Notes: a model not told the origin generated them from the sequence alone. Positions 354-14,668 are shown, counted from the first letter of the stretch. The stretch is DNA of 64,000 nucleotides from Candidatus Gastranaerophilales bacterium (GCA_947584965.1 CANPWQ010000001.1:12480-76479); one strand, 5' to 3'. Made by a program: numbers and translations.

Positions 354-358
354 AAAAA

Positions 359-385: not shown

Positions 386-396
386 TAAATCAGTTT

Positions 397-1572
397 TTAT
401 TTTTTTAAGAAATCAGGAATATCAAGAATATTATTAGCAAATTCAGCAGCTTCCTGTTTCGTAACCTTAGGAGCTTGAGGATTTAAACCTGCAGTCCCAA
501 ATAAATCCAATGCACCAAGGGTTTTTGTTTCCTGTTCCTGCTGATTAAATCTGTCAATTTCGCTTCTCTTTAATTCAAAACCGGTAGCAATAACGGTAAT
601 TTGAATTTCACCCTGAATTCTGTCATCAATAACAGCACCGAAGTGAACAATTGCATCTTCTGATACGGAATCATGAATAACATTAGCAGCGTCGGTTACT
701 TCATATAATGTCATATCAGGACCGCCCGTTACGTTCATAATAATACCCGTAGCTCCGTTAATAGAAGTTTCTAACAGAGGTGAATTAATAGCCGCTTTAG
801 CAGCTTCTAATGCTCTGCCTTCGCCTGTTCCGCGTCCGATACCCATTAATGCGGAACCTGATGATTCCATTACGCTTCTTACATCTGCAAAGTCAACATT
901 TATCATGCCCGGAACGGTTATGATATCAGATATACCTTGAACACCGCGGAGCAATACTTCATCTACAACTTGGAATGCTTCACGCATTGTCGTTCTGCGG
1001 TCAATTACTTCCAGAAGTTTATCATTAGGTATAACAATTAAAGCATCAACTGTTTCTTTTAACTTTTCAATTCCTTGAACAGCTTGTTTCATTCTTCTCG
1101 GACCTTCAAAACCGAAAGGTTTTGTAACAACACCGATAGTTAAAGCACCCAATTCTTTAGCAATTCTTGCAACAACAGGAGCAGCACCCGTACCTGTTCC
1201 GCCGCCCATGCCTGCGGTTACAAATACCATATCAGCTTTTCCGATAGCGTTAACTATTTCATCTCTGGTTTCTTCGGCTGATTTTTCACCTTTTTCGGGG
1301 TTTCCGCCTGCGCCTAAACCGTTTGTCAATTTGCTGCCTATTCTTATTTTATTTTCAGCTAAAGACATTTCAAGCACTTGAACATCGGTATTCATTGCCC
1401 AAAATTCAACACCGCCCAAGCCTGCTTTTATCATTCGGTTAACTGCGTTACCGCCTCCGCCGCCTACACCAATTACTTTAATATCGGCAGGAGTTCCGCC
1501 TGTATGCTGTGTTGTTGAATCGTTATTACTTGTTTCTCTTTTGCCAAAGATATCAGGAACAAAATTTTCCAC
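397..1572 (-). CDS. ftsZ: cell division GTPase FtsZ
   Basis: Tubulin signature [13 protein letters not shown], plus [15 protein letters not shown] and NTDVQ. GTG start preceded by AAGAGGG. Confidence 0.97.
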
Positions 1573-1911
1573 TTATACGCCCTCTTTTTTTTCTATTACT
1601 TTTGATTTAGTGCTTGAGGACTTTGGAGTTTTACCCTTTTATGGTTTTTTGTATTTCCTTTAAGGGTTTTGTCATTTGTGCCTTTTCCGCTTTTGTGACC
1701 GTACTTTTTTATAATTTGTACCGCCTTTTATGCCTTGTACTCCACGCAGGTGACTTTGGATTTGCCGTCTGCCGCCCTGTACCTCTTGCACCCTTTCATA
1801 TCCCGATGTGCCAATTTTTACATGGTTTTCATCGTATATTAACATAGTATTGTAAAATTTTTAAATAGTAAAGAAAAAAACTTTTAAATATTATAGAAAT
1901 TTAATATATGT

Positions 1912-2454
1912 TTATAAATCTTTGTTAGCCTCGCCGATTATATTAGCGGCAGCCGTTAAATTCTTTGCAATATCGGAATAAAGCTCCTCTTCTTCGCCTT
2001 GCGCAACCACTGCATTTATCATTTCATCAACATTTTCTTTTATATCCGACAGTTGAGAAACTGTATTTTGCAGTTTTTGAGTTCGCTTTTTCAGAATAAA
2101 ATAATTCAATAACGGTATTGATGAAACACAATTACTCAGCTTTTTTTTAAAGCGTTTAAAAGTATCCTCCGAAACAATAAAGAAGTTTTCCGAACTTTCT
2201 TCTTTTACGGCAGGATTTTCAGTTTCACTGACAGCGAAAAACTCACTATCTGTTGCATTTAGTTTTTTATTTTTTCTTTTACCTTTAGAGCGAATATTCC
2301 CTGTTGTATTTGAAGCAGTTGAAGCGTGTTCGGGCGCAAAAATATTTGTTTGATATGCCCTTACATCTTCATCTATTGCCATATTTATAGTATTTCCCGT
2401 ATTTTTTTGATAAAAATTTACGGGCTGATTTAATCCGTTTGCGCTTATTTCCAT
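1912..2454 (-). CDS. hypothetical protein, possible FlgM-like anti-sigma-28 factor (weak)
   Basis: 180 aa. The N-terminus MEISANGLNQPVNFYQKN resembles the FlgM N-terminus as I recall it. A helical acidic C-terminus follows (..LYSDIAKNLTAAANII..). Same strand as the GT operon and 60 nt downstream of it. Confidence 0.45.
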   Translation of the reverse strand: MEISANGLNQPVNFYQKNTGNTINMAIDEDVRAYQTNIFAPEHASTASNTTGNIRSKGKRKNKKLNATDSEFFAVSETENPAVKEESSENFFIVSEDTFKRFKKKLSNCVSSIPLLNYFILKKRTQKLQNTVSQLSDIKENVDEMINAVVAQGEEEELYSDIAKNLTAAANIIGEANKDL

Positions 2455-2514
2455 AAGAAAATATTTCCCTATGATAAAATTATAACCTCGCGGGTTTCTT
2501 TTGTTACCGTTTAT

Positions 2515-3987
2515 TTATATGATTTTAATTAATTCGGGGTATTTTTGCGTCAGTTTTTCTTTTTCTTCACTGTTCATTTGAGTCTTTTTAAGCGCTTCAA
2601 CCATATTTTCATAGTATTCATGCTTATATTCATCTTTAATCATGCTGTAATAATAAAGCAGATTATGGACTTTATATGTTAAAAAATCAAACCTTAACGG
2701 TTCAAATGTTTTAGTATCTTTCATCAATTGTTCGACGATATTGAATATTTCTATATGGTCAATAAGCCGTCTGTTATTGTCGGATAAAACGGAGCCTTCT
2801 CTGTTAAACCTGTATACATAAAGTTTTTCGCGAATAAAAAATATCCGTTCCGCTGTTAAAAGAGTTCCGAATATAACTTTATGGTCCTCAAAATCAAGCC
2901 CTTCCGCAAATTCTATATTGTTTTTATCAAATAATTCTTTTGTATACAACTTATTCCAGACGCACATCGGATATTTAAACGGCGATAAATCCCGCCAATT
3001 AAATATTTTATCCGCAGGTATAATATCAAAATTTGCGTCAATAAAGTAAGGAAAAGGTGCATTTACTTTATTTCCCTCATCATAACCGTCAGGCATGCAC
3101 ATTGCAATATCAAGATTTTTTTCTTTTATTAGAGAATATAACCTTTCATACATATTCGGCTTAACCCAATCGTCAGGGTCAACAAAGCCTATGCATTCGC
3201 CTGTTGCAAGCCTTAAGCCGTCATTGCGGGCTGCGCCCGTTCCTTTATTTTCTTTGTGTATTACTTTTATTCTGTTATCTTTAGATTTGTATTCTTCAAG
3301 TATTTTATAGCTTTCATCGGTTGAACCGTCATCTACGCAGATTATTTCTATCTCTTTTAATGTCTGATTAATTAAGCTGTCTAAAGATTGCCTTAAGTAC
3401 TTTCCCACATTATAAACGGGCAGAATTACAGATACTTTTGGCTTAATTTCATAATTAACCTGAATGACGGCAGGCTTTTGCTCTTTTTGTTCTTTTTTAA
3501 CTTTTTGAGATTTTAAAGTAAAAAGTTTTTTCCCTGCTTTTATTAATTTTTTATAGGGTTTTAATTGTTCTTCATAGTATTTTTTTTGCTCTATAAGCTG
3601 ATTTGAAAGGATTTGAGTTTCCGTATTAAATTTTTCATTCAATGCCGATATAATTTCTTCATAGCTTTTTTGAAGCTCTTGAGTTTTTTCTTTTAAATTA
3701 TTTACATGCCAATTTTCTGTTTCTTTTTGACGTCTTATTATTTCTTCTTCATACCAATTTTTTTGCGAGAGTAGTTCTTTTTCATAATACTCTTTTACCG
3801 CTTCTTTATCCTGAGTATTTTTTACGTTGTAATATTCTTCCAATTCCTTTTTTAATTGGGATTTTTCATTTTCAAAATCAGTTAATAACTTTGATTTTTC
3901 ATATTCAAATTTAGATTTTAAAAGTTCAATTTCACTTTCGTAAAATTGCTTTTGAGATTTTAAATATTTTTCATCAAAGTTATCCAT
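2515..3987 (-). CDS. family 2 glycosyltransferase with an N-terminal coiled-coil of about 175 aa
   Basis: K/E/Q-rich heptad-like N-terminus, then VSVILPVYNVGKYL..IICVDDGSTDES..GFVDPDDWV (GT-A fold, DxD motif). Confidence 0.9.
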   Translation of the reverse strand: MDNFDEKYLKSQKQFYESEIELLKSKFEYEKSKLLTDFENEKSQLKKELEEYYNVKNTQDKEAVKEYYEKELLSQKNWYEEEIIRRQKETENWHVNNLKEKTQELQKSYEEIISALNEKFNTETQILSNQLIEQKKYYEEQLKPYKKLIKAGKKLFTLKSQKVKKEQKEQKPAVIQVNYEIKPKVSVILPVYNVGKYLRQSLDSLINQTLKEIEIICVDDGSTDESYKILEEYKSKDNRIKVIHKENKGTGAARNDGLRLATGECIGFVDPDDWVKPNMYERLYSLIKEKNLDIAMCMPDGYDEGNKVNAPFPYFIDANFDIIPADKIFNWRDLSPFKYPMCVWNKLYTKELFDKNNIEFAEGLDFEDHKVIFGTLLTAERIFFIREKLYVYRFNREGSVLSDNNRRLIDHIEIFNIVEQLMKDTKTFEPLRFDFLTYKVHNLLYYYSMIKDEYKHEYYENMVEALKKTQMNSEEKEKLTQKYPELIKII

Positions 3988-3993
3988 AATTCT

Positions 3994-5439
3994 TTAATTC
4001 TTTTTTACTGATTTTTTTAATTTGTTTTGAAGCTGTTCCAGTTTTTTATACGCCTTTAGTAATATTTTAACCAATAAATATTTATTTTCATAATAATTTT
4101 TTTGCTCGTTTAAAGCCTGCATATAATGCTGTTTTTGCTCTTTTAATTTCCATTCGTAATCGGCAATCAGTTTTTCTTTTACCTGTCTTACGGACTCCGC
4201 CTGCCATTTTTTCAATTCATATTCCTGTTTAATCATTTTTTGATTAAATTCGCATTCTAAAACGGCAGATTGCTCTTGAAGCCTGCGAGTGACTTCTTTT
4301 AAGCGTTCTTCTTCGCTAAAATTCTTCCACCATTCTTCTATCTGCCTTTTTTCCTGCTCGCTTTCGCGTTTATACTGTTCAAGATAATCTTTAATTGCTT
4401 TAATATCAAGATTACATTTATGCTCTGCGGCTTTTATTCTCTTATTTGAGGTTTTATATTTTTCAATTAAAAAATTCCAAAATCCGTAATAATCACGTGA
4501 AATTATATTGCAATATTCATCGTAGCAATAACCGACTTTTAAGCTCTCTTTTTGCTCCTCGGTTAAATTTAAGCCGATAAACATTTCACGCATTCGTTTA
4601 TAATATTCTTCATAATATTTATCTTCAAGCAGAGTATAGCGGTGAAATATATCATCAATAAGCCACCTTAAAATTTCATTTTGCTTTTCGGGGAAAAAAC
4701 TTGCCTGCTGTAATATGCTGTATGTTAATTTTGCCATGTCTATTCGGTCATAAACCTTTTTATCGGAGTTTTGCATTGTTGATAAACCCCTGTTTCGGCG
4801 GTAATAATATAAATTTTCCCAAAGTATATTTATTTTTTCTGCTTTCAAATATGTTTCAAAGAAAAACGGCATATCTTCATAAATATAGCCCTCGCTGAAC
4901 TTTACTCCAATTTTTTCTAAAAATTCACGTTTATATATTTTATTCCACAAAACTACGTTAATATTTAAAATTTCATCTTTTGTATCTTCGGGAGAAAATA
5001 CGCTATCACCGTATTTTTCAAGCGATTTTAAAGAATATAAGTCATCAGTATAAAATTCCTGCGACTTATCATCATACAATTGAGCTTTACACATTGTTAT
5101 ATCGGTATCCGCTGATTTTGCTTTGTTATACATTTTTTCAAACATATCAAGCTCTACCCAGTCATCAGCGTCTACAAAGCCTACATATTCGCCCGAAGCT
5201 ATTTCGAGTCCTAAATTTCTTGCATAAGATTGCCCCGATTCCTGCTCCGTATTTAAAAATTTTATTCTTTTATCCTTTTGAGCATACTGCATTACTATTT
5301 CTTTGCTGTTATCGGTTGACGCGTCATTAATACAGATTATCTCTATATCCTCTAACGATTGATATATCAGCGTTGTAAGAGCTTTTGATATATACCTTTC
5401 CACATTCCTGTACGGCATTATTACGGATACTTTAGTCAT
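3994..5439 (-). CDS. family 2 glycosyltransferase with a C-terminal coiled-coil of about 170 aa
   Basis: VSVIMPYRNVERYI..IICINDASTDNS..GFVDADDWV, then a K/E/Q-rich helical tail (..EWWKNFSEEERLKEV..QKNYYENKY..). The catalytic domain is a paralogue of the one at 8913-11267. Confidence 0.9.
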   Translation of the reverse strand: MTKVSVIMPYRNVERYISKALTTLIYQSLEDIEIICINDASTDNSKEIVMQYAQKDKRIKFLNTEQESGQSYARNLGLEIASGEYVGFVDADDWVELDMFEKMYNKAKSADTDITMCKAQLYDDKSQEFYTDDLYSLKSLEKYGDSVFSPEDTKDEILNINVVLWNKIYKREFLEKIGVKFSEGYIYEDMPFFFETYLKAEKINILWENLYYYRRNRGLSTMQNSDKKVYDRIDMAKLTYSILQQASFFPEKQNEILRWLIDDIFHRYTLLEDKYYEEYYKRMREMFIGLNLTEEQKESLKVGYCYDEYCNIISRDYYGFWNFLIEKYKTSNKRIKAAEHKCNLDIKAIKDYLEQYKRESEQEKRQIEEWWKNFSEEERLKEVTRRLQEQSAVLECEFNQKMIKQEYELKKWQAESVRQVKEKLIADYEWKLKEQKQHYMQALNEQKNYYENKYLLVKILLKAYKKLEQLQNKLKKSVKKN

Positions 5440-6640
5440 TGTCGTTCAACTTCTCCAGTTTTGAATACTTAAAAGGCAATTTAAATTTTATCTTTTTAAT
5501 TATACTTACATGCAATTTATCATTATTGTAGTATATATCAAAAATGTTAGGATTTTTCTTAATTTTTGTTATATGTTTTTTATACTTTAAATAGTAAAAT
5601 CCGTTTTCTTTGTATATTATCTCCATTATTTTATACATTAATTTCATTTTATATTTTTGAAATTCATAATAACGGATTGAGTTTCGTTTTATGTTGCAAA
5701 ACAAGTAATAATTATATTTAAAAGCACCTTTTACCATATCGGGTGGAAACAGTTTATCATCGGCAAGCGAGCTTTTTGCATTTATTTTATTCATAAATGC
5801 TTTTTTATATTTAGGATTTAAGTGTTCAAATCGGTAGACAAAATCTTCTACTTTTTTTCTGAAGAAAATATATTTTACATCTTCATAATCGCTTATTTGC
5901 TTAATTGAATTATACATAAGCTCGGCAACATCTATAATATCAAGGAACTGACTGCCCGCCTTTTGAACAATTGAACCTTTACGGTTAATTCTGTAATAAT
6001 ACAAAAAATCTCTAACAATAGAAACTCTGGTTGTTTTAAAGAATATTGAAAAGAAAAACGGGCCGTCCTCAAATATTAAGCCGTCGGGAAATTGAGCATT
6101 GCATTCATCTATCAAACTTTTTCGGTACAGTTTATTCCAAGCCATAACGCAAACATCCATTAAAAACGGTTTTGTATCTTTATAGCTGAATGCTCTATTG
6201 TCAAAGGTTTCATCAAAAAATCCCAAAGTATAATACGGGTTAGAATCATCTATCACTTGTCTGCTTTCATCATATTGATGAACCGCACAAATCGCTATAT
6301 CGGTATTTAACGCTGTCATGCTGTTATAAAGTTTTTCCAGCATTGTTTTATCAATCCAATCATCAGAATCAATAAAACTTATAAACTTGCCTTTTGCGAC
6401 CTTTAACCCTGCGTTGCGCGCAGATGATAACCCTCCGTTTTCTTTATCAACTATTTTTATTCTGCTATCTTTATTTTTATATTCCTCTAATATTTTTCTT
6501 GAACTATCCGTTGAGCCGTCATTTACGCAGATTATTTCCGTATTGGCAAAAGTCTGCGCAAGTATTGTATCTAAGCAATTACAAAGATACTTTTCTACAT
6601 TATATACGGGAACTATTACGGATATTTCGGGTTCTTTCAT
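5432..6640 (-). CDS. family 2 glycosyltransferase
   Basis: ISVIVPVYNVEKYL..ICVNDGSTDSS..SFIDSDDWI. I chose the ATG at 6640 because the track's upstream start overlaps the preceding gene. Tandem paralogue of 6642-7838. Confidence 0.9.
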   Translation of the reverse strand: MKEPEISVIVPVYNVEKYLCNCLDTILAQTFANTEIICVNDGSTDSSRKILEEYKNKDSRIKIVDKENGGLSSARNAGLKVAKGKFISFIDSDDWIDKTMLEKLYNSMTALNTDIAICAVHQYDESRQVIDDSNPYYTLGFFDETFDNRAFSYKDTKPFLMDVCVMAWNKLYRKSLIDECNAQFPDGLIFEDGPFFFSIFFKTTRVSIVRDFLYYYRINRKGSIVQKAGSQFLDIIDVAELMYNSIKQISDYEDVKYIFFRKKVEDFVYRFEHLNPKYKKAFMNKINAKSSLADDKLFPPDMVKGAFKYNYYLFCNIKRNSIRYYEFQKYKMKLMYKIMEIIYKENGFYYLKYKKHITKIKKNPNIFDIYYNNDKLHVSIIKKIKFKLPFKYSKLEKLNDND

Positions 6641-6641
6641 A

Positions 6642-7838
6642 CTAATCTCGAGGCTCCAGCTTTGAATATTCAAACTTAAAACTGAATTTTATTTTCATAA
6701 ACAATACCACATATATTCTGTCATTTTCATACCAAACATCATAAAGATTTGCGCGTTTCTTCAGTCTTAAAATAATTTTTCTGTATTTAAAATAGTATAT
6801 ATTTTCTTCCGTATAAAGAATTTGCATTACTTTATACATTAATTTTACAATAAATTTATCATAGTGATAAAGGATTATATTACATCTTTTTCTTATATCA
6901 AATAAGCGTTTGCGGACTCTTGATGCTTTTTCGTCAACAATATTAAAATCAAAAATACTGCCGTCAAAAAGAAAATCTTTCGTCCTTAATTTTTTTGAAA
7001 ACCGCTTTTTATAAAACATATTTACAAGTTCATAGCGATATACTATATCATCAATTTTGCGGATATAAAATTCATTTTTTATATCGTTAAAACAAGGCAA
7101 ATCCTTAATAGAGTTATACATTAATTCAACAACATCAATAATATCAAGAAAGTGCGCTCCGCCTTTTTCTACAATCGAGCCTTTACGGTTAATTCGGTAG
7201 TTATATAGAAAATCTCTTACAATAGAAACACGTTTTGCCTTAAAGTATATGGAAAAGAAAAACGGGCCGTCCTCAAATATTAAGCCGTCAGGGAAACGGG
7301 CATTATATTTATCCAAAAAATTTTTGTGGTACAGCTTATTCCAAGCCATAACACACACATCCATAATAAACGGCAAAGTGTCATTATAGTCAAAGATACG
7401 GTTATCAAAGGTTTTATCAAAAAACGACAGATTAAAATATTTTTGCGATTCGTCGCTTTGCGCCTTTTGCTCGTCATATAATCTCACCGCACATATTGAT
7501 ATTTCGCTGTTTAATTCGGTTATATTTTTATAGAGCTTTTCAAGCATTGTATTTTCAACCCAATCATCTGAGTCAATAAAGCTGATAAATTCACCTTTTG
7601 CCCTATCAAGCCCAAAGTTGCGCGCGGAAGATAATCCGCCGTTTTTCTTATCAATTATTACAAATCTTGAGTCTTTATTTTTGTATTCTTCCAAAATTGC
7701 CCTTGAATTATCCGTTGAACCGTCATTTACACAGATTACTTCAAAATCTTGAAATGTCTGCGCAATTATTGAATCAAGACATCTTCTTAAATATTTTTCA
7801 ACGTTATAAACAGGAACGATTATGGATATCTTCGGCAT
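6642..7838 (-). CDS. family 2 glycosyltransferase
   Basis: ISIIVPVYNVEKYL..ICVNDGSTDNS..SFIDSDDWV. It shares the Tyr/Lys-rich C-terminal module with the previous gene. Confidence 0.9.
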   Translation of the reverse strand: MPKISIIVPVYNVEKYLRRCLDSIIAQTFQDFEVICVNDGSTDNSRAILEEYKNKDSRFVIIDKKNGGLSSARNFGLDRAKGEFISFIDSDDWVENTMLEKLYKNITELNSEISICAVRLYDEQKAQSDESQKYFNLSFFDKTFDNRIFDYNDTLPFIMDVCVMAWNKLYHKNFLDKYNARFPDGLIFEDGPFFFSIYFKAKRVSIVRDFLYNYRINRKGSIVEKGGAHFLDIIDVVELMYNSIKDLPCFNDIKNEFYIRKIDDIVYRYELVNMFYKKRFSKKLRTKDFLFDGSIFDFNIVDEKASRVRKRLFDIRKRCNIILYHYDKFIVKLMYKVMQILYTEENIYYFKYRKIILRLKKRANLYDVWYENDRIYVVLFMKIKFSFKFEYSKLEPRD

Positions 7839-7844
7839 TTAACC

Positions 7845-8909
7845 TTAACCCCGCTTCTGCAAAATTTCTTCTTTTAATTTTGCCAGTTTTTCGTTCGTCT
7901 TTTCACTCATTTCAGTGTAGATTTTTGTTAATTCAGCGTAAAACATAGTATTCATTTCGTTTATACGGGTGTAAATTTGTTCAATATCTTCATCTCTGCT
8001 TGGAGTTTCAGAAGTGTTTAAAGGTACTTCTTTTATTTGAACTTGATTTTTAAGTTTCTCATTTACTTCATTTAGCTCTCTGTCAAGGCGCTCATGAAGC
8101 TCCTGTTTTGCGTTTGCATTTAATGTTTCCGTGTATTTATAGTTATTTGTAACTTCTTCATAAACTTTATTTATTTCCGCACCTTTTTTATTAATTTCGG
8201 AATTTATGTAATCGTAAATCTTTGTAATATCAACATATACCATGTCTTTTAATAAATTAACGGAATTTTTTAGTTCATTTGTAATTGTTTGAGCTTCATT
8301 TTGCGAGTAATTACGATTTTCATAAATTGTTTTTTCAAGCTGGTTAATTCTGCTTACAATTTCATATTCTTTATTATTTATTGTTTCTATTGCTGTTTTT
8401 GCGCCTTTATCAAGAGAATTTTTAATATAATTTTCGTAACTTTTAACAATATCTGTCAATTGAGCGCAATAAACTCCAAGTTTGCCTTGTATTATTGAAT
8501 CTATTAATGTGCTATTTTCAAGATATTCTCTTTTATAAATTTTTCCGTTTTCAATATTTAATTTTTCACCGGAATTAAAAAGTACTTCGGGCGTTATTCC
8601 GCCATGAAAACTCTCGAATATTACTTGTTCGGGAGGTATAAAGCATATATAATCCCCTTGAGCTAAAGATAGCGCCATTGATTTAGCTTTTTCTAATTCA
8701 CTTTCACTGCCGGTATTAATAAGTTTTATTCGCTCATCACTTTGAGAAGCATCTTGCACAAGTTCTTGCGATTTATCATTTGAACCGTTATTTATACAAA
8801 TAAGTTCATAATCTTCAAATTTTTGGTTTAATATACTGTCAATACAATTTTTTATTGTATCTTGTGCGTTTTTATATATTACGATTATTGATACTTTAGG
8901 TTTAGTCAT
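7845..8909 (-). CDS. degenerate GT2-like N-terminal domain fused to a coiled-coil of about 230 aa (probably non-catalytic)
   Basis: VSIIVIYKNAQDTI..LICINNGSNDKS is GT2-like. The DxD position reads CFIPPEQV instead of F(V/I)D(S/P/A)DDW, and the rest of the GT fold is missing. The tail contains VYEEVTNNYKYTE. Confidence 0.75.
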   Translation of the reverse strand: MTKPKVSIIVIYKNAQDTIKNCIDSILNQKFEDYELICINNGSNDKSQELVQDASQSDERIKLINTGSESELEKAKSMALSLAQGDYICFIPPEQVIFESFHGGITPEVLFNSGEKLNIENGKIYKREYLENSTLIDSIIQGKLGVYCAQLTDIVKSYENYIKNSLDKGAKTAIETINNKEYEIVSRINQLEKTIYENRNYSQNEAQTITNELKNSVNLLKDMVYVDITKIYDYINSEINKKGAEINKVYEEVTNNYKYTETLNANAKQELHERLDRELNEVNEKLKNQVQIKEVPLNTSETPSRDEDIEQIYTRINEMNTMFYAELTKIYTEMSEKTNEKLAKLKEEILQKRG

Positions 8910-8912
8910 ACA

Positions 8913-11267
8913 TTATCTCTTTTTGGCTTTTTCCCATAATTTTTGAAAAATATTTTTTTTATTTTCTAATAGCACCTGCTCGGTTTCTTTAAGTTTATTT
9001 TCCATTGAAATTAATTTATTTTCGTATTTTATTCTCTGTTTATTTAATTTATTTTCAAACTCATCACGCAGTTCATTTATAAATTTATTTTGCGAGTATT
9101 CCCAATTATTTTGAACCTCGGTTAATATTTGCGTGTCTGCTTTTTGGTTTAACAGCTCTTTTAATGCTTCATCCTCAGACTTTCTTTCATTTAGTAATTT
9201 ATAAATTTCGCCTGATGTATAATTTAATTTTTTATCAAAATCATGGCTGTTTTCATTAAGTTGTTTAAACGCTTTAGCTAATTCAGAGTTTGTATAAGCA
9301 TAAACTTCACCAACCCTTAAATTAATCTCATTATTTATTATTTTAGATGAGTTTTTAATTTCTTCATTTAATTTTGTTTCAAGCTGATTAACTTTTTCAG
9401 AAGCATTATTTTCTGCTTTTTCGTACTGGTGGTCAATATAAGAATAAACCTTGTCTTTTGTTTGATTTAAGTTAGTTTTTATTTCATCAGACGTTTTATT
9501 AATGTATGAATATATATCATCTTTTGTTTGATTTAAATTGGCACTTATTTCATCAGATTTTTGATTTATGAATATATATAAATCTTCTTTTGTTTTATTT
9601 TGATATTCAACTGTTTCATTCGTTTTTTGATTTATATATGCATATAAATCGTCTTTTGTTTTATTTTGATACTCAACTGTTTCGTCTGCTCTTTGATCTA
9701 TGTATGTATACAAATCATCTTTTACATTATTTTGATACTCAATGGTTTCATCGTTTTTTTGATTAATATATGTGTATACATCATCCTTTATTTTATTTTG
9801 GTACTCAATGGTTTCATCGGTTCTTTGATTAATGTATGTATATACATCATCTTTTATTGAAATAAAATAATTTTGATTAGCTTGGTTTTCCAGTGCTATT
9901 TTTTCATAAATATTTGTTATCTCATTTTGATGAGCTTGTATTGTTTGATTTATATCATCACGGATATTATTTGTATATTCATAATTTTTAGTTATTTCTT
10001 CATAAACATTCGATATTTTTTCATCCGTCTGCACATTGGAATAATCAATACCGTTAGTTATTTCTTGTTTTAACCAATCATTTGAAGCTGTTATTTTTTC
10101 CGTTAATAAATTTATATTTTGCTCGGAATTTTTTAAAATACTGCGTTTAGCTTCATTTACAATTTTTTCGGTATATTTATAATTTTTGTTGATATCAGTG
10201 TATATATTGGAAAATCTGTTATCCAATTCATCCTTTGGAGTAATTTGAGATAAAAGCCTGTCTTCAACCTCGTGGATATCCAAGTATTCATTAAATACTT
10301 TTTGATTAAATTCCTCAAAAGTTGAATTCATAACAAGTTTGTAGCCTTTAAAATGGTAAACCGATTTCCAGTATTCATCTTCTAAATTTTCTATTTCAAG
10401 ACTCTCAAAAACTTTTTTCATTCCGAAAAAGAACTCGCGGTGGCAATTTTCTTTTAAAAGAGTGTATCTGTGAAATAAATCATTAATAATCCAACCTTGT
10501 ATTTTCTTTTTTTCACTGTCCAAATAAGGAGTATTTTTAACCTTATCATAAGTCAACGAAACCATAGGTATGCGGTCTAAGACTCTGTTATTCATCTGGC
10601 GCATTGTAGAGGTTCTGCGGTTGACTCTGTAAGCATAAAAGTCTTTCCAAATAATTTTTATTCTGCTAGCAGGCAGGTATGAAAAATAGAAAAACGGTAA
10701 ATCTTCATAAATATAGCCTTCAGGAAACTTTGCACGTGTCGATTTTAGATACAGTGCATTATACAGTTTATTCCATAACGCTACATTTATATCTAAAATT
10801 TGTTCTTTTGTATCTTCTGCGCTAAAAATACTATCAGCAAAGCCTTTTAACGGAGTAAGCGAATAATAATCTGATTCTATACGTTCTTTTGTAACATCGT
10901 CAAACTCATGAGCCATACACATAGTAATTTCCGTGCAATATTCAACTGCCGTATTATAAAGCTGTTCAAACATATCGGGAGCTATAATATCATCCGAGTC
11001 AACAAATCCGATATATTCACCTTTCGCAATTTCAATTGCACGGTTTCTTGCATAGCCCTGTCCCTGTCTTGTAGGGATTTCAATTAACTTTATCCTATTA
11101 TCTTTTGCCATGTAATTTTTTACTATCTGAGCGGATTTATCCTCCGAGGCATCATTTACCATAATTATTTCAATGTCCTCAAGAGTCTGCGCAATAACAG
11201 AACGTAAACATTCATCAATATAATTTTCTACATTATTAAACGGTATAATTATTGATACTTTTGGCAT
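8913..11267 (-). CDS. family 2 glycosyltransferase with a C-terminal repeat/coiled-coil region of about 450 aa
   Basis: VSIIIPFNNVENYI..IIMVNDASEDKS..GFVDSDDII. The tail carries two NY(K/E)YT motifs and seven 22-aa repeats. Confidence 0.9.
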   Translation of the reverse strand: MPKVSIIIPFNNVENYIDECLRSVIAQTLEDIEIIMVNDASEDKSAQIVKNYMAKDNRIKLIEIPTRQGQGYARNRAIEIAKGEYIGFVDSDDIIAPDMFEQLYNTAVEYCTEITMCMAHEFDDVTKERIESDYYSLTPLKGFADSIFSAEDTKEQILDINVALWNKLYNALYLKSTRAKFPEGYIYEDLPFFYFSYLPASRIKIIWKDFYAYRVNRRTSTMRQMNNRVLDRIPMVSLTYDKVKNTPYLDSEKKKIQGWIINDLFHRYTLLKENCHREFFFGMKKVFESLEIENLEDEYWKSVYHFKGYKLVMNSTFEEFNQKVFNEYLDIHEVEDRLLSQITPKDELDNRFSNIYTDINKNYKYTEKIVNEAKRSILKNSEQNINLLTEKITASNDWLKQEITNGIDYSNVQTDEKISNVYEEITKNYEYTNNIRDDINQTIQAHQNEITNIYEKIALENQANQNYFISIKDDVYTYINQRTDETIEYQNKIKDDVYTYINQKNDETIEYQNNVKDDLYTYIDQRADETVEYQNKTKDDLYAYINQKTNETVEYQNKTKEDLYIFINQKSDEISANLNQTKDDIYSYINKTSDEIKTNLNQTKDKVYSYIDHQYEKAENNASEKVNQLETKLNEEIKNSSKIINNEINLRVGEVYAYTNSELAKAFKQLNENSHDFDKKLNYTSGEIYKLLNERKSEDEALKELLNQKADTQILTEVQNNWEYSQNKFINELRDEFENKLNKQRIKYENKLISMENKLKETEQVLLENKKNIFQKLWEKAKKR
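9426..9857 (-). repeat. in-frame tandem array of about seven 66-bp (22-aa) Tyr-rich repeats inside the 784-aa GT2
   Basis: IKDDVYTYINQRTDETIEYQNK / IKDDVYTYINQKNDETIEYQNN / VKDDLYTYIDQRADETVEYQNK / TKDDLYAYINQKTNETVEYQNK / TKEDLYIFINQKSDEISANLNQ / TKDDIYSYINKTSDEIKTNLNQ / TKDKVYSYIDHQ.. Confidence 0.9.
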
Positions 11268-11274
11268 TATTATC

Positions 11275-12570
11275 TCACTTCGTCAATTCATCCCTTAATT
11301 CGGCAACAATTTTTTCCGTGTATTTGTAATTTTTTGATATTTCCTCGTATATAAGATTTATTTCATTATTTTTCTTTTCTATTGCCTCATTAAGGTAATC
11401 GTAAACTTTAGGGAATACCTGCTGCGTTTTTTCTTCTATCGCCTCATTAAGGTAATCGTAAACTTTAGGGAATACCTGCTGCGTTTTTTCTTCTATCGCC
11501 TCATTTATATTATCATAGATTTCAATACTTACTTCCTGCACCTTTTTTTCAAGTGCTTCATTAACGTAAGTGTAAATTTGCGAAACTTCCTCATCAAACA
11601 GCTTTTTTAAGTACTCAAAAGACTCATTGGTAAATCCGTATATTTTATTGACTTCACTATACAGCTTTTTTAAGTCTTCATCTGTTGCGTTTATTAATAT
11701 ATTAGTAGTCGTTCCGCCTATATTATTTTTTAACGATTTACCAAACGAATTTTGCCTGTATTCCAATATTTTAGGCGCATATTTTGTATAAGTTAAATAA
11801 TAGTAATAACAATCATAAACAGGATGTTCAAAAGGCATAAGCCACGGCTTAAATCTGCCCGATAAGTGCAATATAGAAGCATTTGTAAGACTTTTAGCTT
11901 TTATATTATTATATAAAAAGAACTGATAGTTCCATTTTTCATCAAGTTCTTTAATTTTTCCGTCAAGAACACAATTAATAATATCCTGATCCTGCCATAA
12001 AATTATGTCTTTATGTTTTTTGCCAAATTCAAACAACTCAGCACTTATTGCATTTTTACGCCAATAACCTAAATTTATCAGCATTACTCCCGCATTAAAG
12101 TATTTTTTTATGTTGAGTCTTTCTGACTCTTTTTTTGTTTCCACATCTAAGACCATTGCCGCGGGTGAATTTTTTATATCTGTATTAAATAACTCCTCTA
12201 AGGATGTTCTGACTATTACGTCACAATCTAAATATAAAATTTTATCGACTTTAGGCAAAACCTCGGGCAGTAAAAATCTGAAATACGTAGGCAGAGTAAC
12301 ATGATAATTTTTATAGTGTTTATTGTTATCTTTTAACATCGGGCAGGAGGAAAAATCTTTTACTTCCATTTTTATATATTCAATATTAAAATTTTTAATA
12401 TTTTTTAATAATTCAATGTCAGATTTGTCACTCTTTTTTAATCCGCCGTCCAGTACGTATATATTGATATTATCTTTTACCGAAGCATTTTTTAATATTG
12501 AAACAAGAGAAACACTAAATTGTTCAATATAATTTTTATCAAGACTATAGCAAATATTGTATTCTGACAT
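11275..12570 (-). CDS. family 8 glycosyltransferase (LPS-type retaining GT) with a C-terminal repeat tail
   Basis: YNICYSLDKNY.., YLDCDVIV (DxD), NAGVMLINL, QDQDIIN. ATG at 12570 is preceded by GGAGAAAAAG; the track start at 12591 is an alternative. The tail ends in IYEEISKNYKYTEKIV. Confidence 0.88.
   Translation of the reverse strand: MSEYNICYSLDKNYIEQFSVSLVSILKNASVKDNINIYVLDGGLKKSDKSDIELLKNIKNFNIEYIKMEVKDFSSCPMLKDNNKHYKNYHVTLPTYFRFLLPEVLPKVDKILYLDCDVIVRTSLEELFNTDIKNSPAAMVLDVETKKESERLNIKKYFNAGVMLINLGYWRKNAISAELFEFGKKHKDIILWQDQDIINCVLDGKIKELDEKWNYQFFLYNNIKAKSLTNASILHLSGRFKPWLMPFEHPVYDCYYYYLTYTKYAPKILEYRQNSFGKSLKNNIGGTTTNILINATDEDLKKLYSEVNKIYGFTNESFEYLKKLFDEEVSQIYTYVNEALEKKVQEVSIEIYDNINEAIEEKTQQVFPKVYDYLNEAIEEKTQQVFPKVYDYLNEAIEKKNNEINLIYEEISKNYKYTEKIVAELRDELTK
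11385..11498 (-). repeat. perfect 57-bp x2 tandem duplication (19 aa, EAIEEKTQQVFPKVYDYLN) within the GT8 tail
   Basis: cctcattaaggtaatcgtaaactttagggaatacctgctgcgttttttcttctatcg occurs twice back to back. More diverged copies flank it on both sides. Confidence 0.95.
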
Positions 12571-12693
12571 CTTTTTCTCCTTTGCGGACATTTAAAATTG
12601 TACTATACATACACAAAAAAAAACACTTATGTAATAATAATTAAAGTATTAAAAAAAAATGCCGATTATATATTTGGAAAAACAGGCAATAAA

Positions 12694-13008
12694 ATGGAAA
12701 CAATTGAAGATAGTGATTTAAAAAAAGTCGGACTTGAACTTATGTTCTTAACGCCTGAAAAATGCAGCCGTTCGGAGGGAATTTCTGCTGTCGAATTATC
12801 TAAATCACTTGGTATGCCTTTAGATACCGTAAAAAAGAAACTTAAAATCCTTTTGGATAAAGAAATAATAAGAGTCTACGGGATTAATCCGAAATTATGG
12901 AAATTTGATGAATATAAATTTCAAAAAATGGATGAAGATGATGAAGTATACAGGCTTTTATGCAACTTTGACGATGTCGATTTTGACAGGTACTTTTCCT
13001 ATAATTAA
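12694..13008 (+). CDS. small winged-helix-like DNA-binding protein (hypothetical), divergent from the GT operon
   Basis: 104 aa from the ATG at 12694. ..ISAVELSKSLGMPLDTVKKKLKILLDKEIIRVYG.. looks like an HTH plus wing. The upstream extension in the track is AT-rich junk. Confidence 0.55.
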   Translation: METIEDSDLKKVGLELMFLTPEKCSRSEGISAVELSKSLGMPLDTVKKKLKILLDKEIIRVYGINPKLWKFDEYKFQKMDEDDEVYRLLCNFDDVDFDRYFSYN

Positions 13009-13228: not shown

Positions 13229-13399
13229 CAAAAAAGCCCTATGCGAATATGATTTTGTTACCTGTGAATGCTCCACAGGTGGGTAAGCGCCTTAACAAAT
13301 CCGTTTCCTGCTGCAAGGCAGGTCTACTGCATTGTTATTAGAGTCTTCTTTCCCTTTTAATCAAGATGTAGGAACAAAATAAATACCCGCATAAGGCTC
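13229..13399 (-). ncRNA. candidate small RNA of about 170 nt with 6S-RNA-like rod architecture
   Basis: On the minus strand, 5' GAGCCUUAUGCGGGUAU..UUUUGUU pairs with AACAAAA..AUAUUCGCAUAGGGCUU, about 24 bp. Four of these pairs are G-U and would be A-C mismatches on the other strand. An 18-nt unpaired 5' bubble strand faces a 3' bubble strand that forms its own 6-7 bp hairpin. An apical stem follows, the RNA ends in U6, and TGTTATAAT lies just upstream. Confidence 0.45.
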
Positions 13400-13403
13400 T
13401 TAT

Positions 13404-13414: not shown

Positions 13415-14668
13415 TTATTTTTCATTTTTCACTATATTATTGATTAATTTTACAGCCTCCGATAATAATTTATCTTTAGATTTTTTATCGGAAGCGGAAT
13501 TTATTGTAATATCAGGAATAATACCTGTTTTTTCTATGTCCTCGCCGTTAGGCAGTATGTATTTTTCCGTTGTTATTATTAAACCTGTTTTATTCGGCAT
13601 AGGAATTACCCGTTGAATTGTGTTTTTACCGTATGTATTTTCGCCCATAATTATCGCATTAATATCACTTTTGAGCGCACCAGCCAGTATTTCCGCAGCA
13701 CTTGCCGTCTTTTCATTCACCAGTATTATTACGGGCTTAGGTTTAAATACCGATTTTGTATCCGCATTTATCTTAAATATCGGCACACCCTTTTTCTCTA
13801 TACTTAATATTAATCCCTCTGCTATCATCATATCAGCCATTTGAACGGCATTTGCAAGTATCCCGCCGTAATTATTTCTTAAATCAATAATTAATGCTTT
13901 AGTTCCGTTTGTTTTTTCAAGTATATTTCTAAAATCTATAAGCGCTTTTTCACCCATTATCGTCGACAACGTTATTATTCCGATGTTATCCTTTGTAATG
14001 ACATATTTCATTGTATCAATCGGAATATCACCGCTTTTAAGCTCTTTTACAAGTATTAAATTCCCGCGCTTTATCTCTACTTTATGTACTTTGTCTTTCC
14101 CCGAATTAATATAATTTTGAATTTGCTCTATTGTCATTTTATTAATGTTTACATTGTCAATTTTAACAATATAATCTCCGGGCATTATATTTTGCTCTTT
14201 TGCGGAAGAATTTTTTATTACTCTGTTTACAATAAGCCCTTGCGCGGATTTATTTAAGGTTAAACCTACTCCCGTTATTTTAGAATCCATTATGACTTTT
14301 TGCCGCTTGTAATTATTGGATTTTAAAAACCTTGTATATGGATCATTCAAACTGCTTAACATTGTATTTATTGCAACTTCGCAGTCCTCCATGGTCTTAA
14401 TTTTATTATTGTATCTGTTTCTCCACCTGCGCCAATCCTGATTATTCATTGTTTTGTCGGTATATTCACGTCTTGCTGTGCGCCAGGCATTAATATAGAC
14501 TCTTGCAGGCGCTATTTTTTGAGTCTGCCTTATACTCTCTATTGCGTTTTTCATCGGGGCATAATTTATTTTTTCCAACGGATTAAATTTTATATCAATT
14601 ATTATCGCAATGATTAATATTGAAAACGTATAAAATAATATATTTTTAATTTTAAAATTTTTATCCAT
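13415..14668 (-). CDS. ctpA: C-terminal processing peptidase, family S41 (PDZ domain)
   Basis: N-terminal TM segment; PDZ region (GVGLTL..PGDYIVKIDNVNI); IIDLRNNYGG; LVNEKTASAAEILAGAL (Ser/Lys dyad region). Confidence 0.88.
   Translation of the reverse strand: MDKNFKIKNILFYTFSILIIAIIIDIKFNPLEKINYAPMKNAIESIRQTQKIAPARVYINAWRTARREYTDKTMNNQDWRRWRNRYNNKIKTMEDCEVAINTMLSSLNDPYTRFLKSNNYKRQKVIMDSKITGVGLTLNKSAQGLIVNRVIKNSSAKEQNIMPGDYIVKIDNVNINKMTIEQIQNYINSGKDKVHKVEIKRGNLILVKELKSGDIPIDTMKYVITKDNIGIITLSTIMGEKALIDFRNILEKTNGTKALIIDLRNNYGGILANAVQMADMMIAEGLILSIEKKGVPIFKINADTKSVFKPKPVIILVNEKTASAAEILAGALKSDINAIIMGENTYGKNTIQRVIPMPNKTGLIITTEKYILPNGEDIEKTGIIPDITINSASDKKSKDKLLSEAVKLINNIVKNEK

Follow-up and report, generated by a model that had tools for sequence, protein, structure and literature searches.

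The window, that is, the whole 64,000-nucleotide stretch of DNA from a Gastranaerophilales bacterium (Melainabacteria) analyzed here, carries seven tightly packed genes with glycosyltransferase (GT) domains, all on the minus strand, and a divergent gene for a 104-residue winged-helix-like protein (wHTH104), which together are a lineage-specific eight-gene module of the Gastranaerophilales. The explanation that we favor, with a probability close to but short of even, is that the enzymes form a membrane-tethered complex, akin to WbdD and WbbB, that builds one conserved envelope glycan. The genes and their surroundings are as follows:

397-1572: ftsZ, flanking the operon beyond the 180-residue gene
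1912-2454, minus strand: conserved gene for a 180-residue protein, 60 nt downstream of the operon and followed by ftsZ
2515-3987, minus strand: P1, GT2 with N-terminal tail
3994-5439, minus strand: P2, GT2 with C-terminal tail
5432-6640, minus strand: P3, GT2, paralogue of P4
6642-7838, minus strand: P4, GT2 with basic C-terminal module
7845-8909, minus strand: P5, degenerate GT2 with C-terminal tail
8913-11267, minus strand: P6, GT2 with C-terminal tail
11275-12570, minus strand: P7, GT8 with C-terminal tail
12571-12693: divergent intergenic region, with conserved blocks in an alignment of eight loci
12577-12583: AAAGGAG ribosome-binding site
12597-12606: near-palindrome ATAGTACAAT (ATTGTACAAT in 7 of the 8 loci)
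12639-12647: intergenic block ACTTTAATT
12660-12665: intergenic block TCGGCA
12694-13008, plus strand: wHTH104, divergent from the operon
13231-13401: 6S RNA, between the Ctp gene and the operon
13415-14668: S41 Ctp protease, on the other flank of the operon

The sequence-only reading had placed seven minus-strand genes at spacings of −8 to +7 nt between ftsZ-side genes and ctpA, and the ORF calls bear out both the layout (gaps from the P1 side of +6, −8, +1, +6, +3, and +7 nt) and the two boundaries. The likeliest start of P3 is the ATG at 6640 rather than the TTG at 6673, which makes it 402 aa long like its orthologues; that of P7 is at 12570 (431 aa) rather than at 12591, in agreement with the calls on contigs L001 and L002. 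The operon has a GC content of 26-31%. As had been noted before, the seven proteins have no transmembrane helix, the Kyte-Doolittle 19-residue maximum being below 1.0 in all of them.

The gene arrangement is not chance: 11 further loci from metagenomes or MAGs contain these genes, 10 of them in the same order and one (L091) with P5 and P6 swapped, and a twelfth locus (L009) has a reduced four-gene form. The outer flanks differ among loci (Ctp, spermine synthase, LysM, sigma-70, aminotransferase). Between genomes the head of P1 is the most conserved of the GT2 heads at 80-84% identity, those of P2, P3, P4, and P6 follow at 59-75%, and the tails, retained in every orthologue, stand at 44-62%, compared with 51-55% for Ctp and 86-91% for FtsZ in the same genomes. 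Since the catalytic heads exceed the neighboring Ctp in conservation, the locus is, by this measure, not of the variable O-antigen type, and the pattern points to strong constraint on the heads and to one conserved product. The tail family has hardly any members outside this operon in a set of 1.84 billion protein clusters. Of the 10 other seven-gene loci with downstream DNA, 8 have the 180-residue gene on that side of the operon (it is absent from L003 and L091 and has no match in L007); its product shares 44-49% identity between genomes, and it may or may not be part of the GT system.

On the other side, wHTH104 is found upstream of the GT8 gene in all nine other seven-gene loci with upstream DNA, at 85-91% identity between loci and 100% in the same-strain contigs L001 and L002. 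Its mechanical ORF begins at TTG 12598, while the conserved start is ATG 12694. The sole Pfam match is HTH_24, at an E of 0.002 that falls under the curated cutoff, Lrp-type matches in the PDB are not significant (E 0.3), and the 106 members of its 90%-identity cluster are all named "hypothetical protein". The gene had not been listed in the sequence-only reading. The conserved intergenic blocks may be regulatory, and wHTH104 may be a regulator.

The proteins can be divided into catalytic heads and tails, with tail boundaries set by BLAST between paralogues:

P1, residues 1-182: N-terminal tail, homologous to that of P2 (E 5e-4)
P2, residues 1-320: GT2 head
P2, residues 321-481: tail of 160 aa, rich in K, E, and Q
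P3 and P4, C-terminus: shared module of ~115 aa, net charge +12 to +15, 9-12% Tyr
P4: GT2 head, helical subdomain, helical hairpin, and basic five-strand beta-meander (residues 347-388)
P5, residues 1-100: conserved pseudo-GT2 stub
P5, residues ~100-354: tail of 250 aa with one 12-mer signature
P6, residues 1-340: GT2 head with helical subdomain
P6, residues ~340-784: tail of 444 aa with two 12-mer signatures
P6, residues 472-625 (DNA ~9454-9858): seven copies of a 22-aa repeat
P7, residues 1-270: GT8 head with DCD and HLSGRFKPW motifs
P7, residues ~271-431: tail with one copy of the 12-mer signature, IYEEISKNYKYT
P7 tail, DNA 11370-11505: 2.4 copies of a 19-aa (57-bp) unit (TRF)

Pfam agrees with the earlier count of five GT2 proteins, one degenerate GT2, and one GT8: PF00535 matches five proteins at E 1e-34 to 1e-41, P5 matches it at profile positions 1-85 only, and P7 matches PF01501 at E 7e-50. 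P5 had rightly been called degenerate, but what was overlooked is that the DxD motif is lost in all six aligned orthologues (FIPPEQ, FINGGE, FISPEK, FIDEIK, ILTPET, FLNADK), with NDGSTD changed to NN(A/G)SxD in five of the six, and P5 is thus to all appearances a pseudo-enzyme. P3 and P4 are paralogues (61% identity by BLAST and alignment) whose common C-terminal module is the basic, Tyr-rich one recognized earlier in two of the proteins; their lengths stay near 400 aa across genomes, and relatives of P4 are nearly all 394-411 aa among the 120 clusters listed of 7,826 matches. The best NCBIfam match of the GT2 heads is PRK10073 (WaaH-like), with all NCBIfam scores far under the curated cutoffs. 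Their best structural matches are CgT, TarS, RmlT, and TarP, and the AlphaFold2 model of P4 (mean pLDDT 89.4, pTM 0.79) likewise gives CgT (5hea), TarS, RmlT, and TarP as its top Foldseek matches. For the P7 head, LgtC is the best solved relative (E 3e-25), and the GT8 matches also include GlyE of the PsrP pathway. Several relatives of these types oligomerize through their C-terminal domains.

The long helical tails that had been described on five proteins (N-terminal in P1; C-terminal in P2, P5, P6, and P7) are found with definable boundaries and are conserved. They are predicted by AlphaFold2 to be all-helical, and not disordered, with a hydrophobic period of 3.64-3.73 residues (hendecad-like) that is coherent over 85-440 residues and stands at z = 4-10 against shuffles, non-repeat parts included (3.66 and z = 8.5 in P5). 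The proposed coiled-coil character holds as to predicted helicity and a coherent periodicity, but the period is ~3.67 and there is almost no power at the heptad value of 3.5. The predicted tail helices are 72-207 residues long at low confidence; in the monomer model of P6 they span residues 345-551, 560-708, and 712-783, with a pLDDT of 45-78 in the tail and above 85 for most of the head. The tail composition is dominated by K, N, E, I, and Y, and the tails of P5, P6, and P7 are acidic (net charge −9 to −22). The 12-mer VYEEITKNYEYT, with conserved Tyr and Thr and present in 1-8 copies, and a YYEN motif are conserved across paralogues and genomes.

Tail length is altered by the copy number of tandem repeats, even among near-identical strains: P7 on contig L002 is missing exactly one repeat and is otherwise identical, and across genomes P7 ranges from 431 to 1315 aa and P6 from 505 to 1154 aa. 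The tail lengths of P6 and P7 do not co-vary between genomes, which makes a single in-register heteromeric complex or stalk unlikely. A tail can apparently serve as a spacer between two heads, since L009, a distant relative, fuses a GT2 head, ~290 aa of P1-type tail repeats, and the P1 GT2 head.

A basic amphipathic helix forms the end of most tails and is a terminal anchor motif conserved across genomes. P6 has the C-terminal helix LENKKNIFQKLWEKAKKR (lipid-binding discriminant D = 2.1), P2 the hydrophobic and basic C-terminal sequence QKNYYENKYLLVKILLKAYKKLEQLQNKLKKSVKKN (D = 2.5, conserved across seven loci), and the P1 tail ends in the basic helix KPYKKLIKAGKKLF directly before the GT2 head. 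P7 in the window does not have the motif, though most of its orthologues do. By our own calculation the distal helices reach D = 2.1-2.7, above the membrane-targeting sequences of MinD and FtsA treated in the same way.

The Pfam scan of the 20 larger ORFs in the window agrees with the earlier reading in finding no Wzx/Wzy, ABC-2 exporter, polyprenyl-phosphate priming transferase, or nucleotide-sugar genes. Nor do homologous clusters lie beside such genes in the flanks examined, which for most sides of the loci other than L007 and, upstream, L010 extend over ~3-8 kb (L001, L002, and L008 have almost no flank), and where Wzm/Wzt, WaaL, a priming transferase, and a terminating module were likewise found near no copy. 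This does not imply a cytoplasmic acceptor, because Waa core operons and tarS/tarP are also encoded without exporter and priming genes.

To account for these features, we propose an assembly line on the cytoplasmic side of the inner membrane in which six active enzymes, P7 (GT8) and P6, P4, P3, P2, and P1 (GT2), together with the dead stub P5, would cooperate on a single conserved envelope glycan. The hendecad-type tails would oligomerize and hold the heads at set distances from the distal basic amphipathic helix, which would sit on the membrane, while P3 and P4 would dock via their basic beta-meander modules. The acceptor would be lipid-linked (LPS-linked or another polymer), with export by machinery encoded elsewhere. 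We count in favor of the assembly line that the closest relatives of the heads act in the cytoplasm on lipid-linked or polymeric acceptors. Melainabacteria are diderm and have lipid A genes (PMC4040986), and the terminator or ruler proteins of glycan assembly in the cytoplasm have been described as marked by an extended coiled coil (PMC11231755). Against the complex, the acidic tails of P5, P6, and P7 fit a stalk and not a helix lying flat on the membrane, a stalk of 30-65 nm would leave a wide distance between the head and an acceptor bound to the membrane, except where the glycan is long, and the ruler literature consulted, in which a system normally has a single coiled-coil protein, offers no precedent for five tailed enzymes in one.

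An LPS outer-core or lipooligosaccharide-type cluster, whose enzymes would each transfer a single sugar straight onto lipid A-core at the membrane and whose tails would be unusually long peripheral-membrane or oligomerization appendages with no spacing function, seems unlikely. With MsbA flipping its product, such a cluster would require neither an exporter of its own nor a priming enzyme, as is consistent with the examined flanks; the heads are conserved at a core-like level, and the host group is diderm with lipid A genes (PMC4040986). The best family matches are to WaaH-like PRK10073 and to LPS 3-alpha-galactosyltransferase or LgtC, but all NCBIfam scores lie far under the curated cutoffs, and heptosyltransferase, WaaA, and WaaL genes were not found nearby. 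The 22-residue amphipathic repeats recall apolipoproteins (faint PF01442 in homologues, ApoA-IV at E 0.07), yet these matches are not significant and long acidic tails are poor binders of an anionic membrane; the conserved pseudo-GT and the 12-mer signature are also left unexplained. We regard as quite unlikely a cytoplasmic protein O-glycosylation system, as for serine-rich-repeat adhesins, in which the seven enzymes sequentially decorate a protein that could be the tails' own Tyr/Thr-rich 12-mer, primed by the glycogenin-family GT8. All proteins are soluble, lipid-carrier genes are absent, GlyE appears among the P7 matches, and the GT2 heads match CgT/GalT1 of the Fap1 pathway best in both sequence and structure, but TarS, TarP, and RmlT match about as well, and no locus contains a GtfA/GtfB-type GT4 pair, a serine-rich-repeat protein, or accessory Sec genes. 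The conserved Tyr of the 12-mer (1-8 copies of VYEEITKNYEYT) is more likely a structural core residue, because in the helix it falls on the hydrophobic stripe.

A cytoskeleton-like or divisome-associated array, in which tail filaments place glycan synthesis at the division site, would suit both the long helical repeats, which resemble coiled-coil-rich cytoskeletal proteins, and the position of the operon directly upstream of and codirectional with the 180-residue gene and ftsZ in the window and seven other loci. It is nonetheless improbable: the ftsZ linkage is broken in L003, L009, and L091, nor was it seen in L007, whereas the operon stays linked to wHTH104, and the synteny may reflect close relatedness of the genomes. 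That the tails are functionless low-complexity expansions of an AT-rich genome on an ordinary polysaccharide GT cluster is already largely refuted, and we give it hardly any probability. The low GC (26-31%), the residues with AT-rich codons (K, N, E, I, Y), and the very variable lengths would be expected of it, but the 12-mer signature, YYEN motif, and terminal anchor are conserved across paralogues and genomes, the long-range periodicity is coherent and far above shuffles, and every orthologue keeps a tail at 44-62% identity.

The preferred reading, a membrane-tethered assembly line, can be set against known systems. TarS, TarP, and RmlT (wall teichoic acid) and CgT/dGT1 (Fap1), the closest solved relatives of the GT2 heads, share with them a GT-A domain, a helical acceptor-binding subdomain, and an extra C-terminal domain; they are soluble, decorate a polymer or protein in the cytoplasm, and are encoded without exporters. 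Identity is only 18-30%, however, their C-terminal domains are compact oligomerization domains unlike the helical tails here, which run to hundreds of residues, and their hosts are Gram-positive rather than diderm. The closest relatives of the P7 head, the LgtC/RfaJ-type GT8 galactosyltransferases of LPS and LOS, are peripheral membrane enzymes with a basic C-terminus; they are tail-less at ~310 aa, whereas P7 orthologues carry 160 to ~1050 aa of repeats. Phage tape-measure proteins are classic protein rulers, and a 22-residue repeat VYSYINQTASNIRQEVGN in tail and tape-measure families of PHROGs resembles the P6 repeat DDVYTYINQRTDETIEYQNK at the repeat level only (20-27% identity); the P6 tail itself has no match in PHROGs, and the phage repeats are T/S/G-rich where it is K/E/N-rich.

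The analogy to WbdD and WbbB drawn in the sequence-only reading stands in topology and fails in the two features that define those systems, a terminating module and the Wzm/Wzt pair, neither of which is present here; Pfam and NCBIfam find no terminator-type domain (kinase, methyltransferase, Kdo transferase) in P1-P7. WbdD, the chain terminator of E. coli O9a and K. pneumoniae O3, has an N-terminal head that is a kinase/methyltransferase and not a GT, an extended helical stalk that by its length determines that of the glycan (PMC11231755), and at the C-terminus an amphipathic helix that binds the membrane. There is one WbdD per system, encoded with wzm/wzt and the WbdA polymerase, in contrast to five tailed proteins with a period of ~3.67 instead of the heptad, no sequence similarity, and no nearby ABC transporter; the order of head, stalk, and basic amphipathic helix is nevertheless shared by P6, P2, and most P7 orthologues. 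In WbbB (Raoultella terrigena, K. pneumoniae O12) and ORF6 of K. pneumoniae O7, a coiled coil parts the catalytic modules (PMC11231755), which include a beta-Kdo GT99 terminator in the former and a methyltransferase-kinase in the latter. Unlike in WbbB, the heads in the window are on separate proteins, while the L009 protein, with GT2, ~290 aa of repeats, and GT2 in one polypeptide, resembles it.

The seven minus-strand open reading frames lie where the sequence-only reading had placed them, but the starts of two (P3 at 6640 and P7 at 12570) were reset on orthologue support, and with orthologue-backed starts the intergenic gaps come to +6, −8, +1, +6, +3 and +7 nt. The genes, with appendages delimited by BLAST among the paralogues, and their closest neighbours are as follows.

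2515-3987, minus strand: P1, GT2 head, N-terminal appendage at residues 1-182
3994-5439, minus strand: P2, GT2 head, appendage at residues 321-481
5432-6640, minus strand: P3, GT2 head, module of about 115 aa in common with P4
6642-7838, minus strand: P4, GT2 head, the same module of about 115 aa
7845-8909, minus strand: P5, degenerate GT2 head, appendage at residues ~100-354
8913-11267, minus strand: P6, GT2 head, appendage at residues ~340-784
11275-12570, minus strand: P7, GT8 head, appendage at residues ~271-431
1912-2454, minus strand: 180-aa gene, between the operon and ftsZ
12694-13008, plus strand: wHTH104, a small divergent gene for a 104-aa protein
13231-13401, minus strand: 6S RNA (Rfam RF00013, 53 bits, gathering cutoff 46.4), between Ctp and wHTH104
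13415-14668: Ctp, S41 protease gene

The proposed count of five GT2 proteins, one degenerate GT2 and one GT8 is borne out by Pfam, with P1, P2, P3, P4 and P6 matching PF00535 at 119-141 bits (gathering cutoff 23.3; E 1e-34 to 1e-41) and P7 matching PF01501 at 170 bits (gathering cutoff 24.3; E 7e-50). In the sequences and alignments the DPDD, DADD and DSDD motifs and the (D/N)DGSTD-like motifs are intact in P1-P4 and P6, and P7 carries the GT8 DxD and HxxGxxKPW motifs as DCD and HLSGRFKPW. The GT2 module covers ~300-320 aa and comprises a GT-A domain and a helical subdomain, as seen by BLAST among the paralogues. The suggestion that the proteins have neither signal peptides nor transmembrane helices also holds, since no 19-residue window in any of the seven has a Kyte-Doolittle mean above 1.0, which leaves no membrane span and no signal-peptide core.

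The placement of the operon between ftsZ and Ctp is correct in outline, but the 180-aa gene, the 6S RNA and wHTH104 intervene. The 20 other large ORFs of the window are housekeeping and cell-wall or division genes (mraW, ftsI, murE, class A PBP, ClpB-like ATPase, RF-1), and none of the 20 is an exporter, flippase or priming transferase. A phage or defence origin is rejected on this chromosomal context (ftsZ, dcw genes, the ClpB-like ATPase), the sole PHROG match being the generic GT2 stub of P5. Rfam finds no leader RNA for the operon, its matches being the neighbouring 6S RNA and two tRNAs (19137-19218 and 22766-22838), and promoter and terminator scans gave no more than background in AT-rich DNA. 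Two further genes of the window were recorded.

46860-48455, plus strand: GT41 (OGT/HMW1C-like) protein of 531 aa (PF13844, E 3.5e-36)
38324-39253, minus strand: 309-aa ORF whose residues 113-136 carry a type IV pilin-like (prokaryotic N-terminal methylation) motif

The GT41 gene is 35 kb from the operon within a cell-wall/division block, flanked by gpsA and a class A PBP gene, and a tie to the operon is conceivable since its family takes in cytoplasmic protein glycosyltransferases. The pilin-like motif is unusually distant from the start of its ORF, so that the real start is probably downstream.

The operon was found again in 11 other loci, and the named homologues belong to Candidatus Gastranaerophilales (non-photosynthetic Melainabacteria/Vampirovibrionia). 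The conserved order (GT8-tail, pseudo-GT2-tail, GT2-long tail, GT2, GT2, GT2-tail, tail-GT2) is identical in L003, L005/L006, L007, L010, L087, L088, L089 and L090; the positions of P5 and P6 are exchanged in L091, the short contigs L001, L002 and L008 hold a partial operon, and L009, from a more distant genome (GC 36%), has a reduced four-gene form. A scan of genome contigs was dominated by generic GT2 matches and gave at least four species representatives with full-length orthologues. The outer flanks vary by locus, both upstream (Ctp, spermine synthase, LysM, sigma-70, aminotransferase) and downstream (ftsZ, MerR, PAS-histidine kinase). The absence of export and priming genes, claimed earlier for the window, extends to the homologous loci: no ABC-2 (Wzm/Wzt), Wzx/Wzy, Bac_transf or GT4 gene occurs in the window ORFs scanned or in the flanks examined, mostly ~3 to 8 kb per side, with next to no flank for L001, L002 and L008 and none annotated for L007 or upstream in L010.

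Homologues of the 180-aa gene (170-180 aa) are directly upstream of ftsZ in the window, L005, L006, L008, L010 and L087-L090. Their products match no Pfam family, are 44-49% identical between genomes, have conserved N-terminal NQPVxFYxKNTGN and C-terminal IAKNL..A motifs, and may be lineage-specific division proteins. One lineage, L005, has a 756-aa G/N/D/T-rich repeat protein (17246-19516, minus strand) inserted between the operon and the 180-aa gene with ftsZ, and a giant protein of >3100 aa (1-2960, minus strand) upstream. Outside the host lineage, many Methanobrevibacter and Methanosphaera MAGs (L012, L014, L018, L024, L027, L032 and others) encode GT2 proteins 36-43% identical to the P4 head, and some of these matches span ~1.7 kb, a hint that gut methanogens have GT2 proteins that are extended or arranged in tandem.

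Rates of divergence differ widely along the operon, as set out in the following table.

Table. Amino-acid identity between genomes whose FtsZ is 86-91% and whose Ctp is only 51-55% identical
P1 head: 80-84%, and still 71% in L009
P3, full length: 69-75%
P2, P4 and P6 heads: 59-73%
P7 head: 53-62%
P5 stub: 37-47%
P1 and P2 tails, P4 C-terminal module: 44-62%

The P3/P4 clusters are nearly all 394-411 aa long (best 120 of 7,826 matches), and orthologues range over 505-1154 aa for P6 and 431-1315 aa for P7. The P4 C-terminal module alone, as a word-index query, returned seven short fragments only, and full-length P4 was used for the counts. These patterns of identity and length mark a conserved product whose enzymes have plastic appendages, and do not fit a serotype-variable O-antigen locus.

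The tails fall into three classes, namely those of P1 and P2, those of P5, P6 and P7, and the P3/P4 modules. The N-terminal tail of P1 is homologous to the C-terminal tail of P2 (E 5e-4), and both are rich in K, E and Q, with a conserved YYE(N/E) motif preceding a helix that is both basic and hydrophobic (LLVKILLKAYKK in P2, KPYKKLIKAGKKLF in P1). The tails of P5, P6 and P7 are acidic, rich in N, K, E, I and Y, and have in common a near-invariant 12-mer, [VI]Y[ED]E[IV][ST]KNY[KED]YT, which among 348 ORFs from 24 loci is confined to the proteins with these tails. Counted by regular expression, it usually occurs once in P5 (not at all in one locus), 0-7 times in P6 and 1-8 times in P7, often at a spacing of 47-51 residues. 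In the window, P6 has seven repeats of 22 residues and P7 has 19-residue repeats. Compared with window positions 11370-11505, L002, from another sample, has exactly one 19-aa (57-bp) repeat fewer in P7 (412 vs. 431 aa), the remainder being 100% identical, which is a strain-level variation in copy number. The C-termini of P6 and P7 orthologues share a conserved motif, (K)(S/T)P-h-x-K-h-h-(E/D)-K-h-K, to which the end of the window P6 (KKNIFQKLWEKAKKR) is related and which is missing from the short window P7. The distal ~200 residues of the window P6 tail match the C-termini of GT8-headed and GT2-headed proteins alike, so that tail modules are shared and evidently exchanged between heads. The P3/P4 modules have a charge of +12 to +15 and a beta-like period of 2.3.

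When the P6 tail was compared exhaustively by phmmer with 1.84 billion cluster representatives, 78 matched at E ≤ 1e-3, 28 of them at E ≤ 1e-10. Among the 50 matches looked at, 15 have a GT8 or GT2 head of the operon type and six are fragments of identical composition type; nearly all of the remainder are phage tail proteins rich in T, S and G, the exceptions being one or two repeat proteins of another kind. Several large phage tail proteins (P0135, P0139, P0143, P0144, P0152, P0161) contain a 22-residue repeat (..VYSYINQTASNIRQEVGN..) that resembles the P6 repeat, and PHROGs puts these repeat regions in tail and tape-measure families. The P6 tail itself had no match in PHROGs, and neither it nor the P1 tail matched PDB sequences significantly. 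Given this lack of PHROG and PDB matches and the few relatives beyond the operon, the P6 tail belongs to a narrow, lineage-specific family.

The AlphaFold2 model of P4 (mean pLDDT 89, pTM 0.79) shows the C-terminal module as a helical hairpin with a five-strand beta-meander (pLDDT 86-91). In the P6 monomer, modeled from a 39-sequence alignment, the head has pLDDT >85 for most of its length and the tail forms three very long helices (residues 345-551, 560-708 and 712-783; pLDDT 45-78). Hydrophobicity in the tails has a period of 3.64-3.73 residues (z = 4-10 relative to shuffles), a signal that the catalytic domains and the P3/P4 modules do not have. Shuffles do not keep tandem repeats; in a control rerun on non-repeat segments the signal persisted, and power at 3.50 was almost nil. 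The period is not that of a canonical heptad coiled coil; it is hendecad- or pentadecad-like, as would be expected of straight or right-handed coiled coils or of 11-mer amphipathic helices. In a HeliQuest-type calculation the P3/P4 modules and the basic, tail-distal helices in P1, P2 and P6 gave the top lipid-binding discriminants (D = 2.1-2.7), which exceed the values computed for the membrane-targeting sequences of MinD and FtsA. P2, P6 and the P7 orthologues have a conserved basic amphipathic C-terminal end, predicted from sequence to associate with the membrane.

P5 retains just the first ~100 residues of the GT-A fold, its Pfam GT2 match covering profile positions 1-85 only. The DxD motif is replaced in all six aligned orthologues (FIPPEQ, FINGGE, FISPEK, FIDEIK, ILTPET, FLNADK) and the nucleotide-binding NDGSTD has become NN(A/G)SxD in five of the six, so by its motifs P5 is a conserved pseudo-enzyme joined to a tail. 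The role implied for such a protein is structural, or that of an adaptor.

The conserved unit comprises eight genes, since each of the nine other seven-gene loci with upstream DNA keeps wHTH104 upstream of its GT8 gene. These copies of wHTH104 are 85-91% identical to that of the window (100% for L001 and L002, contigs of the same strain) and more conserved than every glycosyltransferase of the operon; the annotation is hypothetical protein only, with a sub-threshold match to a winged-helix family as the single clue. Between the two divergent genes, the 123-bp intergenic region holds conserved blocks, a palindrome ATTGTACAAT ~20-30 nt upstream of the GT8 start (reading ATAGTACAAT at window 12597-12606, and present in L003, L007 and L087-L091) and an invariant TCGGCA/ACTTTAATT block, together a candidate operator or promoter.

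Among solved structures, the GT2 heads are closest in sequence to GalT1/CgT from the Fap1 pathway of Streptococcus parasanguinis (E 2e-41), followed by a Bacteroides GT, chondroitin synthase and TarS. CgT, TarS, RmlT and TarP lead the Foldseek matches of the P4 model (E 1e-15 to 1e-22, probability 1.0), and the P7 head is nearest to LgtC, then 3tzt, GlyE and WbbM. Such relatives act on the cytoplasmic side, where they glycosylate proteins or lipid-linked glycans and polymers, and none is known to require export genes within the operon that encodes it. The findings are explained most economically by an assembly line at the membrane periphery that makes one conserved glycan, similar to those of the O-antigen proteins WbdD and WbbB, a model given somewhat less than an even chance. 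The tails would oligomerise and hold the heads apart from a membrane-bound terminal helix; the constant-length P1-P4 could build the repeat or backbone close to the membrane, and the variable-stalk P6 and P7 could, speculatively, work at a distance in capping or branching. An LPS-linked product is plausible since Melainabacteria are reported to be diderm with lipid A genes present (PMC4040986). Against this assembly line stand the missing terminator domain and Wzm/Wzt pair, the acidic tails, and the P7/P6 lengths, which do not co-vary (431/784, 1071/877, 701/1154, 959/505, 522/515, 705/595, 1315/807 and 622/1055 aa) and for which a full-length in-register P6-P7 heteromeric stalk is rejected.

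A plain LPS-core-type cluster with the tails as mere anchors is unlikely; the best NCBIfam models are indeed PRK10073 (WaaH-like) and LPS 3-alpha-galactosyltransferase, but both are well under cutoff (PRK10073, 117-175 bits vs. 423; PRK15171, 103 vs. 461), and there is no equivalog-level Waa match and no GT9 heptosyltransferase, WaaA or WaaL neighbour. Glycosylation of cytoplasmic proteins, or self-glycosylation, is a rather improbable reading; the GT2 heads are closest to a Fap1-pathway enzyme, but the hallmarks of the SRR pathway (the GT4 enzymes GtfA/GtfB that prime it, an SRR substrate and accessory Sec genes) were found in none of the loci. A slimmer chance goes to the tails as a programmable scaffold, on which the 12-mer VYEEITKNYEYT (1-8 copies on P5/P6/P7 stalks) would dock partners into a self-assembling, possibly filamentous, cytoplasmic array. 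The docking partners might be wHTH104 or the other enzymes, P3/P4 for instance by way of their basic beta-meander modules; repeat copy number would tune stoichiometry and reach, and coupling to cell division could come through the conserved place upstream of ftsZ. That the glycosyltransferases form a filament linked to ftsZ is very unlikely; the 180-aa gene and ftsZ are downstream of the operon in most loci, not all. Tails as junk low-complexity expansions are scarcely credible, and the tails are not predicted to be disordered, in line with the helical reading of their sequence, AlphaFold2 making the P6 tail helical at low confidence.

Literature on Gastranaerophilales glycosyltransferases, envelope ultrastructure and GT2 coiled-coil tails holds no description of the operon, nor did we find one of its combination of features, in which long non-heptad helical tails of a private family, on five of the seven proteins with GT domains, go together with a pseudo-GT that is conserved, a repeated 12-mer that is almost invariant and a small partner gene that is itself highly conserved. 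The host lineage is uncultured, common in the guts of animals and sister to cyanobacteria. Should its tails organise the enzymes, the operon would be a natural scaffolded, length-tunable glycan assembly line and a first handle on the Gastranaerophilales envelope glycan. Since the tail family lacks a solved relative and hardly occurs outside the operon, its hendecad-type repeats and signature motif offer coiled-coil structural biology something new.

Oligomeric GT2 enzymes with C-terminal domains are known, such as TarS and TarP, and P4 resembles TarS, TarP and RmlT in Foldseek in having a GT-A domain with a helical acceptor-binding subdomain; no tar/tag genes were seen nearby. The coiled-coil "rulers" known so far come from a few proteobacterial O-antigen systems that each have one such protein, whereas here a pathway is composed of tailed enzymes (five of seven proteins). 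For O-antigen synthesis that depends on an ABC transporter, the existence of single coiled-coil rulers is established (PMC11231755). The operon differs from WbdD and WbbB in that the chain-terminating kinase/methyltransferase or Kdo transferase is missing, only GT2 and GT8 domains being present, and in that a Wzm/Wzt ABC-2 exporter is not in the examined flanks. The predicted topology of P6, P7 and P2 equals that of WbdD, and the fusion in L009, a GT2 followed by ~290 aa of QSQYYENxLKEEL repeats and then P1, is like WbbB and ORF6-O7.
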